Source: Thermoplasmatota archaeon
GTDB taxonomy: Archaea; Thermoplasmatota; E2; JACPAO01; JAHFTW01
DNA: 64,000 bases
NCBI GenBank assembly: GCA_038046785.1
Contig: JBBSVM010000001.1
Coordinates: forward strand, 75,665 to 139,664
Direction of reading: 5' to 3'
A model generated the notes under the pieces. That model did no database searches. It saw only the letters and a list, made by a program, of their open reading frames with translations, and had not been told where the DNA came from. The position numbers and the translations under genes were made by a program. Positions 34,279 to 64,000 of this stretch are shown in pieces (within the stretch, counting starts at the first letter, position 1; the number at the start of each line of letters is the position of its first letter).

Positions 34279-36312
34279 CTACGTCCGGGCGTGGACTTTG
34301 CGGTGCAGCGCGTTCTGGACCTGCACCTTACGCTTGGCGGCGCCGGGGGCAAGGGCGTGGTCGAGCACCTCGGCGAGGTCTTCGGCGAGGAGGATCTCGA
34401 TGCGGCTGCGGTAGGAGTGCTCCAAGAGGATGTCGTCCTTGTTGCTGTGCGGTACGACGGCGCGCCGGTAGCCGAGGTCGGCGGCGCCCTCCACCATCTG
34501 TGTGATGCCTTCCACGGCGCGCAGACGGCCGGTGACGGCGAGGCTGCCGAGGATGACGGTGTCCTGGCGCACCGGGAGATCCTCGAGGGCGCTGATGCAG
34601 GCGACCGCCGAGGCGGCGCTCAAGGCCTGAACGTCGGCGCCCGCCTGCTGAAGCAGCGACTGGACATGCAAGTCGATGCCTGCCATGTCCGAGCCGCGCA
34701 ATCGTTTGACGACGGCGCCCACAGTGTCTGCGACGGTGGCGTCTCGTTCCAGGCCTCCGCCGAAGAAGAGAGTGCCTTTCTGGCGGTCGCTGCTGATGGT
34801 GGCGTCGGCTTCGACGGGGACGACGATGCCGGCCGGCTCGCCGGTTTCGCCGGTTCCCATGAAGGCGCAACCGATGGCAGTTCCAACCTTCTCGCCGCCC
34901 ACCGTGAGCGCCTCTTTGGCGGTCGCGACCTCGATGCCGCGGCGCGTGACTTGGTATTCCAGGCTCTGGCTCATGCGCTTGGCACCCAGGACATGGTCCA
35001 CGGTGACGCTGGTCGCATTCTCGTCGCGCGCAATATCGCCAGCGGTGCGCACCAGGCCGCCCAGTTCGCGCAGTCGGAGCGTGAGTTTGCCTGTGTGGCC
35101 GCTGCGGCGCTGCGCTTCGCGAATGACCTCGGCGACGGCGCCGCCATCAAAGTGCGGGATGCGACCGTCGCGGCGCACTTCCTGGGCGACGAAGCGAACC
35201 AGTTTGCGACGGTTGGCGTCGGTGTCCTCCATGACCGCGCGCACGTACACTTCGTAGCCGTAGCCGCGAATGCGGCTGCGCAGCGCAGGGTGAAGGCCCT
35301 GGAAGCGCGAGTCGGTCGGATTGAGAACATCCATGTTGCCCGCGGCGACCAGGATGAAATCGCACGGGATGGGCTCAGTCTTGGCTTGCGCTCCCGAGGA
35401 TTTCTCGGACTGACCGGTGATGCTGTACTTGCGGTCCTGCATCGCGGTGAGGAGTGCCTGCTGCGAGTCGAGGCGCAGGACGTTGATCTCGTCGATGAAC
35501 AGGAGTCCTTTGTTGGCGCGGTGGATGGCGCCCGGCTCGACGCGCAGGTGGGTCGGCGTCTCAAGACCGCCCGACTGGAACGGGTCGTGTCGAACGTCGC
35601 CAAGCAGCGCGCCGGCGTGGGCTCCGGTGCCATCGACATAGGGGGCGGGGGAGACGCCAGCTGGCCGTTCGATGATGAGATTGGGCACCAGCTTTCCCGG
35701 CTTGGCGCCGAACTGGCGCGCCACGAAGAGGAAGAACAGCGTCACCAAGATGCAGAGCACCAACGTGGTGATGCCGCCGGTCCCGCCGATGGAGTAGAGC
35801 GCGTAGAATCCCGCCGAAAGAATGGCGAGAGCCAGCAGAACCTCGATGCCGGTGAAGAGCCGGGTGAGCCGCTTGGCGCGCTGCTGCGCGTGGAGGGAGA
35901 GCGAGCGCCCTTCGCCCGCAGGCAGGGTGCGGACGTGCGGGACGTTCTGGTCCTTGACGTTGGGCAGGATAATGACATCGTCGAGAGGCGTGGCGGGGAG
36001 AATCTGCGCCATCGCCTTGGCAATCATCGACTTTCCGGTGCCGGGGTCGCCCAGCAGGAGTAGGTGGCGGCGCTGGCGGGCCGCCTTCTTGGCGACCTCG
36101 ACCGCCTCCTCTTGGCCGATGACTTCGTCGATGAGCAGCTCGGGCAGCGGCAAATCCGCGGTGCTGGCCAGCCCTTCGGCCTCAATCCAGGCGTGCGGGT
36201 CGCTGAGCTTGAGACCGTGGCCGTTGCTTGCAGGCTCCTTGGCTTTGCCCTTCGTCGACACTTTCGCCTTGGCGGGCGTTGCGGACACCTTGAACAGTTT
36301 GCGTGACATCAC
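34279..36312 (-). CDS. lonB: archaeal membrane-bound Lon protease (LonB)
   Basis: Walker A GDPGTGKS. Two TM helices are inserted in the AAA+ module. C-terminal Ser-Lys protease domain. Confidence 0.9.
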   Translation of the reverse strand: MMSRKLFKVSATPAKAKVSTKGKAKEPASNGHGLKLSDPHAWIEAEGLASTADLPLPELLIDEVIGQEEAVEVAKKAARQRRHLLLLGDPGTGKSMIAKAMAQILPATPLDDVIILPNVKDQNVPHVRTLPAGEGRSLSLHAQQRAKRLTRLFTGIEVLLALAILSAGFYALYSIGGTGGITTLVLCILVTLFFLFVARQFGAKPGKLVPNLIIERPAGVSPAPYVDGTGAHAGALLGDVRHDPFQSGGLETPTHLRVEPGAIHRANKGLLFIDEINVLRLDSQQALLTAMQDRKYSITGQSEKSSGAQAKTEPIPCDFILVAAGNMDVLNPTDSRFQGLHPALRSRIRGYGYEVYVRAVMEDTDANRRKLVRFVAQEVRRDGRIPHFDGGAVAEVIREAQRRSGHTGKLTLRLRELGGLVRTAGDIARDENATSVTVDHVLGAKRMSQSLEYQVTRRGIEVATAKEALTVGGEKVGTAIGCAFMGTGETGEPAGIVVPVEADATISSDRQKGTLFFGGGLERDATVADTVGAVVKRLRGSDMAGIDLHVQSLLQQAGADVQALSAASAVACISALEDLPVRQDTVILGSLAVTGRLRAVEGITQMVEGAADLGYRRAVVPHSNKDDILLEHSYRSRIEILLAEDLAEVLDHALAPGAAKRKVQVQNALHRKVHART

Positions 36313-38426
36313 TTGGCCTCCGCGACCGCGAAGTGGGCAACGCGGCGTTTGACGGTGAGCAGGTAGGTGACCATGCTGATGGCGGCGAGCCCCAGCACGG
36401 AGCCGACGGCGGTGATGGCGGCATTGGGCAGGCCAAGCGCGGTGGCAAGCGGCGGCGGCGGCACGTTGGCGGGCGGGATGGGGAGCTGGCAGGCGGTGCT
36501 GGCGGGTGCTGCCAGGATGGAGCCGACCTGCATGGCGCCGTAGTCATTGACGGCGAAGGTGAGGACATCCTCGCCGATGGCGTTTTTGTGGGCGACGAGG
36601 CCGTCCTGCGTGTCGTCGAAGAGACTGGGTTGGATGGTGTACGCCTCGAGGTTCTGCGGGTCGACGCCGGTGCCGAGCTGCATGACCGAGGCGGCGATGG
36701 CGCCCGGGAAGGTGCACTGGTTGAAGCTCACCACGAGCTTCTGGAAGTCGGTGAGCTGCGGCGACGGCGGGACCGGATTGGTGGGGTCCACAACAGGTGG
36801 CGGCTGGTTGGGGTCGGTCGTCTCCGCGGTCCGGTTGCTCTGCCACTCCATGTAGACAATGGCGACGGTCTTCTCGGTCGGCGTGATGGCGAGAGCGTTC
36901 ACGTTGAGGTCGAAGGTGTCGTGGTTGCCAAGCAGGCGATGCAGCTCCGGCCCCATGTCGGAGCCTGTCGCCTCCCACTGCGTGCCATAGTAGCCGAAGC
37001 TCCCTTGGATGCGCGCCGGCTGCGTCGCGCCCTGCTTGAGCGTGGAGACGATGGCGAAGTAGCCGTCCGGCGTCGCGGCGAGAATCGGGTGGCCGCCGCG
37101 CAGGCCGGTCGTGGAGACGTAGGTGGTGTTGCCGGTGAGCGGATCGAGCGCCCAGATGTCGATGTCGCCGATGCGGGCGCGGCTGCGGTGGCTGTAGCCG
37201 TTGTCCACGACGCAGGCAACGTAGATGCGCCCATCCCAGGCGACCGGGTTGCTGGCATCCATGCAGGGGCCGATGAGTTGTGAACTGTTGAGCCGGGCAT
37301 CGAGCCGTTTCCAGTCGTTCTTGTCGTTCACAGTGCCGATGGTGGCGTCAATCCAGCCCGCGTAGCCGGTCGTGCTGTTGCGGTAGTCCACCGCTTTCTC
37401 GAACCAGACGGCGGCGACACGCTCTTCGGAGCGGTTGACCGGGTTCGCCTCTTGGCCAATCTGCGTCTCGTTGGCGGGCGGCGGCACGGTGCCGTTGGCG
37501 GTCAGCGTGTAGTTGGCAAACGGTGGCGGCGGGATGCGCGGCGGGATGTTGAGCACGTACGCGTTGGCGATGATGTTGGTGGGCGAGCGGCTGCGGACGT
37601 AGTGGCCGGAGGTGTAGCTGCTGCTCGCCGAGTTCTGCTCGCTCGAGTGGCCCGCCTTGTAGAGACCGATGAGTCCCTGGTAGCCCGTCGTTTCGTTGCC
37701 GTTGGGGAGGCTCCAGAGGTAGAGAATGTAGTTGTTGCCGCGCGAGTCGGTGGCGATGCTTGCCGATTCGCCGAGGAACGCGAGGCCGTTCCCGCCGCCG
37801 CCGTAGGATGTCGGCTGGTCGGTCCAGCTGAGTCCCTGGTTGCCGGTCGTGAACGCGGTGTGGGTGAGATCGTTGCGGCTGCGCGGGGTTGGCCCGTTCG
37901 GGGCGGGGTTGCCGTGCAGGGCGACGAACGCCATGCCGCTCGGGTCGTCGGGGTCGATGGCGAGTTGCGGGTTGCCGAAATGGTAGTCGGAATCGTAGAC
38001 TCGGAAGGGGCAGCCGTACACGGTGCGGTCCGGGTCGGACGGGTCCACGAACTGCTGCAAGTAGTCCTGGTTCGTCGTCGGTGGGCAGCTGAACTGCAGT
38101 TGGGCGGGAGCAGCCGCAGCGTTTCGATATCCGGTGTCGAGCGGGATGGGAGTGAGAGCGTGGCTGACCAACATGCGGCCGTGGCGCAGCGTGTTGAGGT
38201 CAACGACTCCGGGAAGTGGCATCAGGTCGAGCGCCGTCGCCGCAGGGGCGAGGGCCGCGGGGGAGAATGGCTGTGCGGAGGAGGAAGCCGTGGCAAGGTT
38301 GGGGGTCGCAGCAGACGGAGCCGAAGCGCCGGGAACTGCAAGACCCGCCAAGTGGGCGGAACTGGGGGCAACCAGGAGAACGAGAGCCACGCTGACGATG
38401 AGGCGGGCCCAGGGTCGGTCCAGCAT
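36309..38426 (-). CDS. secreted, C-terminally membrane-anchored protein of unknown function (one Asp-box-like motif)
   Basis: Signal peptide ...APSSA/HLAG. Contains TGNQGLSWT, a BNR/Asp-box-like motif, and a C-terminal TM helix plus basic tail. The stop overlaps the lon start. Confidence 0.65.
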   Translation of the reverse strand: MLDRPWARLIVSVALVLLVAPSSAHLAGLAVPGASAPSAATPNLATASSSAQPFSPAALAPAATALDLMPLPGVVDLNTLRHGRMLVSHALTPIPLDTGYRNAAAAPAQLQFSCPPTTNQDYLQQFVDPSDPDRTVYGCPFRVYDSDYHFGNPQLAIDPDDPSGMAFVALHGNPAPNGPTPRSRNDLTHTAFTTGNQGLSWTDQPTSYGGGGNGLAFLGESASIATDSRGNNYILYLWSLPNGNETTGYQGLIGLYKAGHSSEQNSASSSYTSGHYVRSRSPTNIIANAYVLNIPPRIPPPPFANYTLTANGTVPPPANETQIGQEANPVNRSEERVAAVWFEKAVDYRNSTTGYAGWIDATIGTVNDKNDWKRLDARLNSSQLIGPCMDASNPVAWDGRIYVACVVDNGYSHRSRARIGDIDIWALDPLTGNTTYVSTTGLRGGHPILAATPDGYFAIVSTLKQGATQPARIQGSFGYYGTQWEATGSDMGPELHRLLGNHDTFDLNVNALAITPTEKTVAIVYMEWQSNRTAETTDPNQPPPVVDPTNPVPPSPQLTDFQKLVVSFNQCTFPGAIAASVMQLGTGVDPQNLEAYTIQPSLFDDTQDGLVAHKNAIGEDVLTFAVNDYGAMQVGSILAAPASTACQLPIPPANVPPPPLATALGLPNAAITAVGSVLGLAAISMVTYLLTVKRRVAHFAVAEAK

Positions 38427-59607: not shown

Positions 59608-60138
59608 TCAACCGTACAGGCTGCTCCACAAATCCGCGAACTCGTCCTTCAGATTGGGCGTCGGCTTGTAGGCGAGAAGAAGTGCGAGGAGACCGGGCCG
59701 GTCGGTCGGCTCGAAGCGCCCATCCGCATCCTTGCGCACGACGCCAGCCGCCTCCAGCTTGCGCAGGTGGAAGCTCAACTTGCTCTTGCCGAGGTCCAGG
59801 TCGTCGCAGATGCGCTTGTGCTGCAGTGGCCCCTCCTGATCGAGGAGATGAAGCGTGATTTGCAGCGGCAGCTTGGCGCGCAGCGCGGCAAGCTGATCGC
59901 GCTGCCGCGCCGTCGGAGCGGGACCATTCCCGGCCTCCCCCGCCGCGTAGAGCCGGACGTAGCGCTCGTCGCGCTCCTGACGCAGCAACCCGTTTTGCGC
60001 CAGGATGGCGATGTGGTACTCCACCAGCGCGACGGAGGTGTCGAGCTGGCGCGCCAACTCCCGCACGTGCAAGCCAGGGTAGGCCTGGATGGTCGCGACG
60101 ATGCGGCGGCGGATGTCGAGGTCGAGCAGCCTGCTCAT
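59608..60138 (-). CDS. ArsR-type winged-helix transcriptional regulator (two wHTH modules)
   Basis: The segments RRRIVATIQAYPGLHVRELARQL and HKRICDDLDLGKSKLSFHLRKLEAAGVV both look like ArsR HTH units. Confidence 0.7.
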   Translation of the reverse strand: MSRLLDLDIRRRIVATIQAYPGLHVRELARQLDTSVALVEYHIAILAQNGLLRQERDERYVRLYAAGEAGNGPAPTARQRDQLAALRAKLPLQITLHLLDQEGPLQHKRICDDLDLGKSKLSFHLRKLEAAGVVRKDADGRFEPTDRPGLLALLLAYKPTPNLKDEFADLWSSLYG

Positions 60139-60461
60139 TTCGACCTGCGCGCGAACGGCAGGAAGGGGGCGACCAGGCAGCCGACGATGGCGAGGTCGAA
60201 GGCGCTGTTGAGCACCTCAAGCGCGCCGTGCGTGAGCGGGAAGCTGGAGGGGTGGTCGAGGTGCTCCTGGCTCGGGTTGACGTAGAGGGCGTAGAAGGTG
60301 ATGAGACTCTTCACGCAAAACAGGACGAAGGCGGCCGTCACCCAGTTGAGCTGCGCCTTTCCGCTGGCGGTGCGGGCGCGGTAGGCGAGCACGGCGAGGA
60401 GGAAGCTCAGGAAGGCGACGCCTCCGACCAGGACCAGGGAGACGGTGGCGCTGTCCATCAT
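60135..60461 (-). CDS. membrane protein, hypothetical
   Basis: 108 aa from ATG 60461. Three TM helices. The stop overlaps the regulator start (ATGA). Confidence 0.55.
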   Translation of the reverse strand: MMDSATVSLVLVGGVAFLSFLLAVLAYRARTASGKAQLNWVTAAFVLFCVKSLITFYALYVNPSQEHLDHPSSFPLTHGALEVLNSAFDLAIVGCLVAPFLPFARRSK

Positions 60462-60501: not shown

Positions 60502-61542
60502 TCAGCGGCGGCGCGCCAGGCCGGCAAGACCCAGCAGGGCAAGGCCAAGCAGCGGACCGACGCCGGGGGAGGCGACGCTTGCAGCCTGTTCGGCGCTCAC
60601 GACGAGGTCGCCCACGGTGAGTGTGCCGTCCGGTTGCAGCGTGAGGGGAAGGCGGCCGCCCACGTCGGTGAAGATGTCCAGTTCGAGCGGCCCGTTGCCG
60701 GAGCCAAGGTCGGCGTCGAGTGTGAATTCCAGGGAACCTTTGGCAGGGATGGAGGCGAAGGTGGTGCCTCCGAGCGTGTAGGTCCATCCCGCGACGTTGC
60801 GGGGCTGAACGTAGACGTGCTGTCCGCCATCCTTGAGCGCGCTGGTGGCGAGGATGATGTAGGCGCCGGGGCCGGTTGCGCGGGCGCTCGGGATGAGGTA
60901 GATGCCCGGGCCCTGGGCTGGAACCGAGGCGACGTTCACGCCTTCGTCAGCGATGGCGGTCGGGTCCTCGTAGAACAGGAGTCCATTGGTGCCGGGGATC
61001 GGGATGCCGCCCGGGGCGACGTCGCGCAGATCGCCGTCCTTGCGCGACTCCACGAGGCTCACGCCGATGGCGTCGCCGGGCTTGATTCCGACGCTTGCGA
61101 AGCTGGTGAAGGCGCGCAGGACGCTGGTGGAACGGGAGTCGGTCTCGACCTCGACGAGGAGGCTGTCGAAGTCGCTGCTGAACGCGACGCCGTCTGTCGT
61201 GGTGAGGGTGCGCTCGACCGGGCCTTGCGGCGTGGTGATGGTGAAGGTGACGGTCCAGGTGCCCTGGCCGACGGCGAGCGACTCCGCCATGAGGCCGTAC
61301 AGTTCGGCGCGCAGGTAGAAGCCGTCGCCTGCCGCACCGGAGCCGACGCTCGGGTCGTGCGCGAAGCCGATGAAGATGGCGTTGATGTCGAAGCCGCCGT
61401 ACGGCTCGATGGAGTCCGTGCCTTCGTCGCTGAGCAGGTACATCTCCAGCTCGTTCGCCTCGACGACGCCGTGAGCGCTGGCGGGGGGAACGGAGGCCAG
61501 AAGAGTCGTGGCCAGGAGGGCAACGATGAGCCGGATGCGCAC
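60502..61542 (-). CDS. secreted paralog 1 of an unrecognised surface-protein family, C-terminal TM/RRR anchor
   Basis: GTG 61542. Signal peptide ends PPASA/HG. C-terminus GPLLGLALLGLAGLARRR. Shares blocks with the two following genes. Confidence 0.65.
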   Translation of the reverse strand: MRIRLIVALLATTLLASVPPASAHGVVEANELEMYLLSDEGTDSIEPYGGFDINAIFIGFAHDPSVGSGAAGDGFYLRAELYGLMAESLAVGQGTWTVTFTITTPQGPVERTLTTTDGVAFSSDFDSLLVEVETDSRSTSVLRAFTSFASVGIKPGDAIGVSLVESRKDGDLRDVAPGGIPIPGTNGLLFYEDPTAIADEGVNVASVPAQGPGIYLIPSARATGPGAYIILATSALKDGGQHVYVQPRNVAGWTYTLGGTTFASIPAKGSLEFTLDADLGSGNGPLELDIFTDVGGRLPLTLQPDGTLTVGDLVVSAEQAASVASPGVGPLLGLALLGLAGLARRR

Positions 61543-61600
61543 GCCGCGCCATGAAGGACACCCTTGAAGAGCGTTGAGTCGGGGGACGCGGAGCGCAGCA

Positions 61601-61640
61601 CATTTTTGTTGTTCAAACAACGACAAAGGTTATGTTGCCC
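61601..61640. promoter_or_regulatory. AT-rich divergent promoter region with an imperfect palindrome
   Basis: CATTTTTGTTGTTCAAACAACGACAAAGGTTATGTTG is the only AT-rich stretch between the divergent paralog genes. GGTTATGT lies ~25 nt before GTG 61658, so a leaderless start is possible. Confidence 0.3.
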
Positions 61641-61657
61641 CCACTTTTGGTCAATCT

Positions 61658-62737
61658 GTGAACAAGCTTCTCGCCGCAGTCGTGGTTGGACTTGCCGCCC
61701 TCGCCTTGCTTGCCCCCACCGCCATCGGACATGGCGCTGCCGCCGCGCGCGAGATCGATACCCGCATCCTCGCCGACGACGACGGCCTCATCGGCTACGG
61801 CCCCGACTCCTGCTCCGCCGCCCCGGTCTGCCCGCTCTCAAACGGCGCGCTGGACCTCCTCTCGCTCGACATCCGCGAGGCAAAGAACGAGACGGGCGCG
61901 CACGTCCTCTGGTTTCGCGCCGTCTATCAGACCGACCATGTCGGCATCCCGGCCGAGCTGCACCTCACCTTCACCGCCGCCGGCGCCGAGCATGAATTCG
62001 AGTGGAGCTCCACCGACCTGACTGCATTCTCCTCGACCACCTTCGCCGCAGTCGCCGGTCCAACGCCGGTGGGCGACGGCCACCCCCAGGCGGTCGATGG
62101 CATGGTGCTTGCCTCGGCTCTGGGCCTTTCCCCGGGCGACGTCATCAGCGACCTCGCCATGGAGTCGCACGGCGAATCCGGAGAAGACCTGATGCCGGGC
62201 GGCTGGACCGTCCAAGGCATTCCGTTCGACCCCGTCCCCAACCCCGCCTCCGAACTGGAGGAGCACGAGCACTACGACGGCACTTACACGCTGCTTGGCC
62301 CAGCCCCGCTCGTCACCGCGATTCTCAGTGACCGTTCGGCAGGCGCCGCCCGCAGCGCCACCCTGACGGTCACCAATGCGCTTGCCGGAACTGCACAGTT
62401 CACCATGTTCGATGTGGTCCCCGCAGCGCTTGCGACTCTTGACCTCGCCTCGCTCGCCCTCGATGGCGCCGCCACCAAGAGCGCCGTCCTCACCGTCGCC
62501 CCCGACGCCTTCGGCACGCTCACCGTCACGGTTCGCAGCGACCTCGGCGCCTACCAAGTGCTCAGCCTCGACCTCGGCGCGGCACCCATTCCGGCGACAC
62601 CTTCCCACAATGGCACCGCGCACGACCATGACGACGCGGACGGCCACCATGACGGGGAGGCCAACAAGGCGTCGCCGCTGCCGCTGCCCTTCCTTGCCAT
62701 CGCGGCCGCAGTGCTTCTGGCCCGCCGCCGCGCCTGA
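61658..62737 (+). CDS. secreted paralog 2, His/Asp-rich pre-anchor segment, C-terminal TM/RRR anchor
   Basis: GTG 61658. Signal peptide ends TAIG/HG. Contains HNGTAHDHDDADGHHDGE before the PLPFLAIAAAVLLARRRA anchor. Confidence 0.65.
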   Translation: MNKLLAAVVVGLAALALLAPTAIGHGAAAAREIDTRILADDDGLIGYGPDSCSAAPVCPLSNGALDLLSLDIREAKNETGAHVLWFRAVYQTDHVGIPAELHLTFTAAGAEHEFEWSSTDLTAFSSTTFAAVAGPTPVGDGHPQAVDGMVLASALGLSPGDVISDLAMESHGESGEDLMPGGWTVQGIPFDPVPNPASELEEHEHYDGTYTLLGPAPLVTAILSDRSAGAARSATLTVTNALAGTAQFTMFDVVPAALATLDLASLALDGAATKSAVLTVAPDAFGTLTVTVRSDLGAYQVLSLDLGAAPIPATPSHNGTAHDHDDADGHHDGEANKASPLPLPFLAIAAAVLLARRRA

Positions 62738-62796
62738 GCACTCAACAACAACCCTTTTTCCCTCGTTCCGGTCTCGACAAAACGTTGGCCCCTCCC

Positions 62797-63879
62797 ATGC
62801 GCGCGACCCTGTTCCTTGCCCTCGCCGCCCTGGCCGTCGCGGCCCTTCCCTCCGCCTCGGCCCACGGCGCTCCTACCCCCGTGGACTTCATGGCGCGCCT
62901 GCTCGCCGACGACAACGATGACTGCGGCGCTCACGGCGACCCCAACCCGGCAGGCAGTTGCCGCGGCTCGGATGACCTCATCGCCCTCGACGTCCAGGAA
63001 AAAGCCAACGGCGAAGCAACCACACTTGTGTTCCGTTTCTGGCTCGACAAAGGCACCACATTCCCCGTCACCAACACGCTCACCTTCCAAGCGGGAGGCG
63101 CCGCGAAGAGTTTCGCCATCAAGACAACGAACGGTCAATCCTACACGGTGGAGTCCGGCTTCGACGCCGTCGCGGCTCCCAAGAGCGTCAACGATGGAAC
63201 GCGCTCCACGGTGGACGCCTCCGTGGACGCCGCCAAAGTGGGCGCCATTGGCACAAAGCTGACCAGCATCAAGGTGGAGTCGAAGTCCGGAAGCAACCTG
63301 GGCGATTACATGCCGGGCGGCTGCCGCAACAACCTCGGCGAGTGCAGCGGAACCGACCAGGAAACGCGGTACAGCACCGACTACACTCTGCGCGGCCCGG
63401 CCTACTACGCCAAGATGGATGCGCCCACGACACCGATTCGCGTCCCCGCCGGCGGCGACTCCCAGCTGACCCAGATTACGCTCACCAACTCGCTCTCCAA
63501 GTCGGCGCAGACCCTCACCCTCACGCTCACCGGCGCGAACGGCGTCTCGGGCGGGTTCCACGCGGGCGAGCCAACCTCCGCATCGCAGTACACTTCGACG
63601 AAGCAGGTGGCGCTCCAGGGCAAGCAGCAGACCGTCCTCCACCTGCGCCTCCACGGCGATACCATCGATGCGGCCGGAACCCTGACGCTCACGCTCACCA
63701 CCGACCTGGGCGGCCGCGTCGTCGCACAGATTCCCTACGAAGTGGTTCCCTCCGGCTCCGCCACGGACCTGCCCACGACGGCGTCGTCCCCCGCCACCTC
63801 GAGCAAAGGCTCCCCCGCCGCTGCGGCTCCCCTGGTCGCCCTTGGCCTCCTCGCCATCGCCCTTCGCCGGCGGTCCTGA
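62797..63879 (+). CDS. secreted paralog 3, C-terminal TM/RRR anchor
   Basis: ATG 62797. Signal peptide ends SASA/HG. Shares LLADD, LD(L/V), LTF(T/Q)A.G, (D/E)(L/Y)MPGG and YTL.GPA blocks with paralog 2. Confidence 0.65.
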   Translation: MRATLFLALAALAVAALPSASAHGAPTPVDFMARLLADDNDDCGAHGDPNPAGSCRGSDDLIALDVQEKANGEATTLVFRFWLDKGTTFPVTNTLTFQAGGAAKSFAIKTTNGQSYTVESGFDAVAAPKSVNDGTRSTVDASVDAAKVGAIGTKLTSIKVESKSGSNLGDYMPGGCRNNLGECSGTDQETRYSTDYTLRGPAYYAKMDAPTTPIRVPAGGDSQLTQITLTNSLSKSAQTLTLTLTGANGVSGGFHAGEPTSASQYTSTKQVALQGKQQTVLHLRLHGDTIDAAGTLTLTLTTDLGGRVVAQIPYEVVPSGSATDLPTTASSPATSSKGSPAAAAPLVALGLLAIALRRRS

Positions 63880-64000
63880 ATGGGAACTTGGCGCACCTGC
63901 GGGGCGCTCCTCCTCTTCGTCGCCCTCGTTGCCGCGCTGCCAACTGCCGCGGCGCACGCAGAGGTCGCATCGAGCGAGCCTGCGGCCGGGGCCCACCTCG
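63880..64000 (+). CDS. CopC-like copper-binding protein, 3' end cut by window edge
   Basis: Signal peptide ends TAAA/HAEV. The segment HAEVASSEPAAGAHL resembles the mature CopC/YobA N-terminus (H-x-x-L-x-x-S-x-P-x-x-G). Confidence 0.5.
   Translation, partial: MGTWRTCGALLLFVALVAALPTAAAHAEVASSEPAAGAHL

Follow-up and report, generated by a model that had tools for sequence, protein, structure and literature searches.

In Bacillus subtilis the protein YcnI is exported, its first residue after cleavage is His27, and a single Cu(II) is coordinated by the amine and imidazole of that N-terminus together with Glu50 (PMC8424229, PMC12362106). A transmembrane helix at the C-terminus tethers YcnI, which is encoded alongside YcnJ, a CopC-CopD protein, and exchanges Cu(II) with the CopC domain of the latter; when copper is limiting, both proteins are required (PMC8424229, PMC12362106). 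Secreted protein families that start with His are an active topic, and among them DUF4198, DUF6702, and the "anglerases" (Ang-1, Ang-2) are encoded beside or fused to membrane permeases and are proposed to fish metal ions (PMC12537917). Here we analyze three adjacent genes at the end of a 64,000-nucleotide stretch of a Thermoplasmatota archaeon contig (the window; GenBank assembly GCA_038046785.1, contig JBBSVM010000001.1, positions 75,665–139,664; G+C ~67%). Their products form a new family with a new fold inside a known functional kind, and are not among the described secreted families that start with His. We judge, with slightly better than even confidence, that they are extracytoplasmic, membrane-tethered metal binders that would work with a co-transcribed CopC-CopD copper transporter; on our best reading they are most likely a non-homologous archaeal analog of YcnI, i.e. 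a surface Cu(II) binder acting with CopC-CopD (CopCD). The locus is arranged as follows:

60502–61542, minus strand: paralog 1, 346 amino acids (aa), GTG start, divergently transcribed; predicted mature N-terminus HGVVE (His codon 61471–61473); C-terminal helix ending ...LARRR.
61658–62737, plus strand: paralog 2, 359 aa, GTG start; predicted mature N-terminus HGAAAAREID (His codon 61730–61732); subfamily motif GDGHP; C-terminal helix ending ...LARRRA.
62606–62659, plus strand: His/Asp-rich stretch HNGTAHDHDDADGHHDGE of paralog 2, next to the membrane.
62797–63879, plus strand: paralog 3 (P0001), 360 aa, ATG start; predicted mature N-terminus HGAPTPVD (His codon 62863–62865); motifs LLADDNDDC...C, DLIALDVQE, DGTR, and GDYMPGG; C-terminal helix ending ...ALRRRS.
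63880–64000, plus strand: first 40 codons of a CopC-CopD fusion; predicted mature N-terminus HAEVASSEPAAG (His codon 63955–63957); the gene continues past the window end.

The shorter starts of paralogs 1 and 2 are those of public gene calls on a contig with an identical copy of the region; the longer open reading frames for these genes in the mechanical list overlap head to head. In all three proteins the N-terminus is briefly basic, continues into a hydrophobic core, and has a small-x-small site with His-Gly directly after it (PPASA/HG, TAIG/HG, and SASA/HG in paralogs 1–3, respectively), and the C-terminus runs through a linker rich in Ser/Thr/Pro or in His/Asp and a hydrophobic helix to RRR. 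Tails of this type were sought in the other proteins of the window and were found in the three paralogs only. An initial annotation, made from the nucleotide sequence, had described these signal peptides with A-x-A-type sites before HG, the C-terminal anchors ending in RRR(A/S), and the His/Asp-rich stretch of paralog 2, all of which are present. It had also listed blocks shared by the three proteins, of which LLADD/LLSDE, LTFT/LTFQ, and D(L/Y)MPGG or DVAPGG are found, but YTL.GPA is missing from paralog 1.

Pairwise BLASTP relates paralog 2 to paralog 3 (E = 3e-16) and, marginally, paralog 1 to paralog 3 (E = 7e-4); the match between paralogs 1 and 2 is not significant. Against a profile made from 26 other members, none of them a window protein, paralog 2 scored 132.6 bits and paralog 1 scored 55 bits (E = 3e-19). 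The latter score places all three proteins in one family, as initially claimed, with paralog 1 as a divergent member. In the numbering of the paralog 3 precursor, which is used below for the conserved residues of the family, paralog 1 is without Met172, Glu68, and the Cys pair, and keeps Asp38, Asp170, and the His at position +1 of the predicted mature protein (His1).

The family is large and anonymous. A word-indexed search with paralog 3 returned 33 proteins, none with a functional name or Pfam domain, those with a name coming from metagenome genomes of Thermoplasmatota or Thermoplasmata. When 1.84 billion representatives were searched exhaustively with the profile, 322 clusters passed E ≤ 1e-3 and 185 passed E ≤ 1e-30, giving a family of at least 322 clusters at 50% identity; looking up the clusters of ten divergent members added almost no taxonomy. 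The source names of relatives are all "hypothetical protein," scans of the three proteins against Pfam (E ≤ 1) and NCBIfam gave nothing above threshold, and the family profile had no match among all PDB sequences at E ≤ 10, in keeping with the initial view of the family as undescribed. Text searches on the family found nothing relevant in the literature, and neither did searches for Thermoplasmatota together with CopD or the neighboring HVO_0163 or DUF7471 families.

Alignment of 173 members to the family profile, 166 of which have an N-terminus, revealed a His at the predicted +1 position in 159 of the 166 (96%), so that the His noted in the three window proteins is kept in family members elsewhere. 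The preceding residues are those of a signal peptidase I site: position −1 is Ala in 136 members, Gly in 25, and Ser in five, position −3 is Ala in 129 and Val in 30, and a helix-breaking Pro occupies position −5 in 129. Together these residues place the predicted cut directly before the His, as the initial annotation had it, although the assignment comes from the −3/−1 rule only. The residues that follow are Gly in 111 members, Ala in 126, and Pro in 112, giving a typical mature end of H-G-A-P, and in separate alignments of 32 and 34 sequences the His is the sole invariant residue of the N-terminal domain.

As a control for His at +1 we used a secreted family that is unrelated but belongs to the same lineage. 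Its representative in the window, for which an SSA/HL junction had also been reported, is:

36309–38426, minus strand: secreted protein reading SSA/HL, 705 aa, with a C-terminal transmembrane helix and a highly conserved tail, YLLTVKRRVAHFAVAEAK.

This protein, which has no Pfam match, does read SSA/HL, but His is at +1 in only nine of 20 homologs with a recognizable signal peptide and is not a feature of that family. The 96% conservation in the paralog family is thus not a habit of the lineage.

The CopC-CopD gene starts at 63880, directly abutting the TGA stop of paralog 3, and its product reads ...PTAAA/HAEVASSEPAAGAHL. The full gene, on the parent contig (L001 11084–12769), encodes a 561 aa protein with above-threshold matches to PF04234 (52.9 bits) and PF05425 (50.2 bits). 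The initial annotation had identified the gene as CopC with a predicted mature His (AAA/H); the His stands, but the protein is a CopC-CopD fusion rather than CopC alone. Among solved structures its CopC domain is closest to that of B. subtilis YcnJ (9C14, E = 7.5e-7); His1 and the D-x-H ligands coincide in the alignment.

The neighborhood figures rest on 14 distinct loci, found mainly by exact-protein look-ups; a tight-alignment profile search for loci contributed two from genome contigs and two from metagenome contigs. Each locus has one to three family genes, and CopCD is adjacent in 12 of the 14, directly downstream in eleven and just upstream in L015. Across these 12 loci the CopC residues H26 (His1), D111, and H113 are invariant. 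The CopCD link holds in loci with different surroundings, namely L003, with a multicopper oxidase neighbor, L012, with an integrase neighbor, and L004 and L015, which are islands with NikR_C, Zip, and CDF genes. Co-occurrence with copper-handling genes in relatives had been suggested as a check on the initial proposal, and the copper link is much stronger than could be seen from the window.

Three further observations concern these loci and the fusion protein itself. The closest sequenced relative, Thermoplasmata archaeon nzgw65, has two copies of the module on different contigs (L008 and L009), each with its own CopCD, one with three paralogs in the window's arrangement and one with two. In L015, where CopCD is upstream and is followed by NikR_C, the family member (P0028; 7001–8761) is called at 586 aa and continues at its C-terminus as a membrane domain of several helices, which could be a true fusion or result from a missed stop or frameshift; Zip and CDF genes lie downstream of it. 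Beyond the window, the C-terminus of the CopC-CopD protein (L001 12400–12769) is a ~110-residue extracytoplasmic segment that follows the CopD helices and matches no Pfam domain at E ≤ 0.01, YtkA-like domains included; by analogy, it would parallel the YtkA domain of YcnJ.

Apart from His1, the family conserves a set of potential metal ligands, which the initial proposal of metal binding had called for. Eight candidate positions, D38, D41, D42, D60, E68, D133, D170, and M172, are 83–98% conserved, and the overall order of conservation is D170 (98%), D38 (95%), and E68 (91%), followed by D133, D41, R80, D60, M172 (84%), and D42. The conserved positions fall in the motifs LLaDxxDD, DLiALDvxE, DG(T/H)(R/P), and GDxMPGG. 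No second His is conserved family-wide and no other His reaches 40%, so a two-His brace of the lytic polysaccharide monooxygenase (LPMO) or CopC type, the geometry suggested initially, is not supported. A subgroup of 36 sequences of the paralog 2 type, with Pro at position 136, does have His135 in 67% of its members, giving D-G-H-P; the D-G-H motif is present in 24 of these 36 and in none of the paralog-3-type proteins, which have D-G-T-R. Of 163 full-length members, 26 have a His-rich linker (at least four His in 20 residues), window paralog 2 among them. A YcnI-like site with one His and a carboxylate is a better analogy than the two-His brace, and the likeliest chemistry suggested by the conservation pattern would be a one-His site with carboxylates and perhaps Met172, or with His135 in paralog-2-type proteins.

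Structure prediction was consistent with an ordered, unfamiliar fold. The AlphaFold2 model of mature paralog 3 has a predicted local distance difference test (pLDDT) score of 86.2 and a predicted template modeling (pTM) score of 0.81, and that of the N-terminal domain alone reaches 88.8 and 0.88, respectively. The model comprises an ordered N-terminal arm, a ~180-residue β-sandwich, an immunoglobulin (Ig)-like domain (183–295), a disordered linker (304–321), and a clear C-terminal transmembrane helix (322–337), with the first ten residues ordered (pLDDT 83–88). Foldseek comparison of the whole model identified generic tandem Ig-like domains, including transglutaminase C-terminal barrels and β-galactosidase Ig domains, at template modeling (TM) scores of at most 0.31. 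The best PDB match of the N-terminal domain had E = 0.018, with TM scores not exceeding 0.37; the 50 matches listed are to Ig V domains, CBM9, and amylase N-domains, and among them there is no YcnI (7MEK, 7ME6, 3ESM), CopC, PCuAC, or LPMO, although a weaker resemblance to YcnI could sit beyond these 50. Homology to YcnI, CopC, LPMO, or PCuAC is thus unsupported by this comparison.

YcnI and its Bradyrhizobium counterpart PcuD (DUF1775, PF07987) are the described proteins that the family most resembles in organization. Both groups have a signal peptide followed by a conserved His and a β-sandwich with a single C-terminal transmembrane helix, and in both the gene lies beside a CopC-CopD fusion (YcnJ in B. 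subtilis) and a helix-turn-helix (HTH) regulator; the combination of +1 His, modeled terminal helix, and CopCD linkage described above reproduces the YcnI set of traits. In YcnI one His and a carboxylate suffice for Cu(II), which fits the family's want of a second conserved His. In contrast to YcnI, the family has two domains, is ~2.5 times larger, occurs as one to three paralogs per locus, and is archaeal; it has no conserved Trp among its top-ranked positions, where conserved Asp, Glu, and Met are found. With no DUF1775 match at E ≤ 1, no PDB sequence match to the profile, and none of the three YcnI structures among the 50 fold matches listed, the sequence and fold tests both fail, and membership in DUF1775 was rejected.

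The family shares with C0-1-type CopC (PF04234) a mature N-terminal His, and the D-G-H-P loop of the paralog-2-type members resembles the D-x-H ligands of CopC. However, no member protein of the window matches PF04234, and hhalign of the family against the 12 co-encoded CopC domains aligned only 30 columns, comprising the signal peptide and His (85% probability), so homology to the CopC domain was also rejected. The signal peptides of the two families thus appear alike together with their A-x-A/H junction, whereas the mature domains appear unrelated. Histidine-brace proteins of the LPMO type (AA9/AA10, X325, PmoF) likewise have an N-terminal His, often His-Gly, on a secreted β-sandwich, but differ from the family, which is tethered to the membrane and shares an operon with a transporter gene. 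An N-terminal His, with cleavage placed by the −3/−1 rule, is present in the family and the second His is absent, which argues against assignment to this class, as does the lack of an LPMO among the 50 fold matches listed. The "signal strapping" N-terminal-His proteins (DUF4198, DUF6702, and the anglerases) also have a signal peptide followed by His and a β-sandwich (PMC12537917), yet the family has no Pfam match to DUF4198 or DUF6702, its named members are archaeal whereas those families are bacterial, and its His conservation of 96% is higher than that reported for DUF4198 (79%) and DUF6702 (65%) (PMC12537917). At the extreme C-terminus, a short Pro motif ((S/T)P.P, or PGF in some relatives), hydrophobic helix, and basic tail are reminiscent of PGF-CTERM/archaeosortase signals. 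The window proteins score 12.7–16.7 bits, below threshold, with the MYXO-CTERM and GC_trans_RRR models, and relatives with a literal PGF motif score 13.3–18.1 bits with PGF_CTERM (TIGR04126), for which the cut-off is 24.5.

A subset of the family is fused to domains that point to copper. Approximately 16 of the 173 aligned members carry an extra ~100-residue module between the Ig-like domain and the linker, and six of these (P0105, P0116, P0121, P0128, P0160, and P0170) have a type-1 copper loop, YHCHPHP(W/L/Y)M. PF00127 (Copper-bind) matches P0128 (35.7 bits) and P0170 (27.3 bits) above its cut-off of 21.2, and one of the six gives partial matches to amicyanin and plastocyanin. The blue-copper loop precedes the GDTVxWxN...H..MG half, an order from which the domain looks circularly permuted. 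In the remaining ten inserts, YH(N/D/Q)HH or a similar sequence replaces the Cys. One cupredoxin-bearing member fills the paralog 2 slot of the same syntenic operon; PF00127 is absent from the three window proteins (Pfam scan, E ≤ 1). One of the two relatives above the PF00127 cut-off is located as follows:

L016 6001–7353, strand not given: P0128, a cupredoxin-fused relative.

The flanking genes and the divergent intergenic region of the window provide candidates for control of the module:

59608–60138, minus strand: winged-helix transcription regulator, 176 aa, with two winged-helix domains; Pfam HTH_20, HTH_24, HTH_HVO_0163_N (48.5 bits), and ArsR-type HTH_5 (47.2 bits).
60135–60461, minus strand: small membrane protein, 108 aa, with hydrophobic segments fitting about three transmembrane helices and no Pfam match.
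61611–61633, strand unassigned: DNA element GTTCAAA-N3-CGACAAAGGTTAT in the divergent intergenic region, with related motifs upstream of family genes elsewhere.

Homologs of the regulator lie beside family genes in L003, L004, L005, L006, L008, L010, and L014, with an HTH protein of the same type in L016, and in at least eight loci an HTH regulator is paired with a small membrane protein (90–108 aa) beside the module, the latter always having this partner. Alignment of the small membrane proteins identifies K51, H78 (in xHExLEL), and D89 as invariant. The small membrane protein is co-transcribed with the regulator, and the two could form a membrane-bound metal sensor and transcription factor pair, or the former could be a membrane partner. 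The motif GTTCAAA-N3-5-(C/T)GACAAA-NN-TTAT occurs upstream of the first family gene in at least nine other loci (L003, L004, L005, L007, L008, L010, L012, L013, and L014), and the window element overlaps an imperfect palindrome, TTTGTTGTTCAAACAACGACAAA. The element is probably a BRE/TATA-type promoter (BRE, transcription factor B recognition element), possibly with an operator for the neighboring HTH regulator.

Taken with the YcnI precedent, these features suggest how the module may work. Each protein would leave the cell by the Sec pathway, and a signal peptidase cut after A/G-x-A/G would bare His1, the amino group and imidazole of which could then chelate Cu(II). The site would probably be completed by conserved carboxylates and possibly by Met172, to which the His of D-G-H-P may add in paralog-2-type proteins. 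A flexible linker of ~25 residues, His/Asp-rich in paralog 2, and a C-terminal helix with an RRR stop-transfer sequence would hold the two β-sandwich domains just above the membrane, where the tethered protein might capture or buffer Cu(II), or hand it to the His1/Asp/His site of CopC, the presumed direction of transfer. CopC would then feed CopD, and the conserved HTH regulator and small membrane protein would probably control expression.

Several observations weigh against this reading. L006 and L017 have no CopCD within the flanks read, though both still have metal-related surroundings: L006 retains the regulator pair, and in L017 the genes next to the paralog-1-like member (P0139; 8801–10968) encode a P-type ATPase, a HupE_UreJ_2 permease, and a repressor of the CsoR/RcnR type (PF02583). 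These L017 neighbors hint at another metal pathway, possibly efflux, for the paralog 1 branch. Wider synteny (GcvP, NAD kinase, OsmC, RsmB, NUDIX) is common to several loci, so that the co-occurrence with CopCD partly reflects common descent and not independent association. The seven members without His1 retain the other conserved residues, with no pattern in the residues that they jointly lose, the second His is lacking family-wide, and the NikR_C, Zip, CDF, and HupE neighbors leave nickel or zinc possible. The idea that the N-terminal His domain captures nickel, zinc, or another divalent ion, in the manner of the Ni-binding DUF4198 or the anglerases, draws on these same neighbors: in L004 and L015 NikR_C genes adjoin family genes and Zip and CDF transporters are close by, and L017 has HupE_UreJ_2. 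N-terminal-His proteins that prefer nickel are documented (PMC12537917), and the many conserved carboxylates would suit harder metal ions. We nonetheless regard a metal other than copper as rather improbable: CopC-CopD is the immediate, translationally coupled neighbor in most loci, L015 too encodes it, upstream of the NikR_C gene, and the cupredoxin fusions and the multicopper oxidase neighbor favor copper. CopC and CopD were first described in resistance operons, and the module might accordingly serve protection rather than uptake, by soaking up or buffering excess Cu(II) at the surface, perhaps drawing it from CopC, and so limiting entry. Cu(II) passes preferentially from the YcnJ CopC domain to YcnI in vitro, for which a storage or regulatory role was proposed (PMC12362106); one to three paralogs per locus and the His/Asp-rich linkers would add capacity, and the CsoR-type repressor and P-type ATPase beside the L017 member are a typical efflux pair. 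Conversely, it is when copper is limiting that YcnJ and other C0-1-type CopC-CopD fusions are needed (PMC12362106), and the window locus itself contains no efflux genes; we consider protection unlikely.

The redox role that the initial annotation had raised can be framed in two ways. The family may be a new-fold class of redox-active cuproproteins in which His1 receives electrons from a fused or partner type-1 cupredoxin and either reduces Cu(II) to Cu(I) at the cell surface before import by CopD or oxidizes a surface substrate, which we think distinctly unlikely. That the proteins are redox enzymes and not carriers at all, performing LPMO-like oxidation of a surface polymer or converting Cu(II) to Cu(I) before import with cupredoxin electrons, appears quite improbable. 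An N-terminal His on a β-sandwich is a hallmark of LPMO-type enzymes (PMC10952591), six relatives have a complete type-1 electron-transfer loop in the same polypeptide, and the oxidation state in which CopD takes copper is not settled in the literature; against this stand the want of a second conserved His, the lack of LPMO, X325, or other copper-enzyme structures among the 50 fold matches listed, the loss of Cys from most cupredoxin-like inserts, and the three window proteins, which have no cupredoxin domain. Finally, the generic Ig-like tandem domains among the best fold matches, a C-terminal tail weakly like archaeal sorting signals, and the fairly common His at +1 in the unrelated 705 aa family (nine of 20) would suit ordinary surface, adhesion, or envelope glycoproteins in which the His serves signal-peptide processing or folding, not metal binding. 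This is very improbable in our view, since the needs of signal peptidase do not explain 96% conservation beside variable neighbors, and chance would have to account for the tight linkage to CopCD and other metal genes as well as for the His-rich linkers and the cupredoxin fusions.

Copper delivery to CopD-type importers is still being worked out in Bacillus and is essentially unstudied in archaea. If the family arose independently of YcnI as its archaeal counterpart, placing a tethered copper binder with an N-terminal His next to CopCD would be a recurrent solution. The signature A-x-A/H-G-A-P ... LLaDxxDD ... DLiALDvxE ... GDxMPGG could annotate more than 300 clusters now called "hypothetical," and the confidently predicted β-sandwich, for which there is no solved relative, makes an attractive subject for structure determination and metal-site chemistry. 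The fusions to blue-copper domains and the His-rich linkers could show whether uptake involves a redox step; a redox-active role, if true, would supply a missing step, the oxidation state of the copper transported by CopCD.

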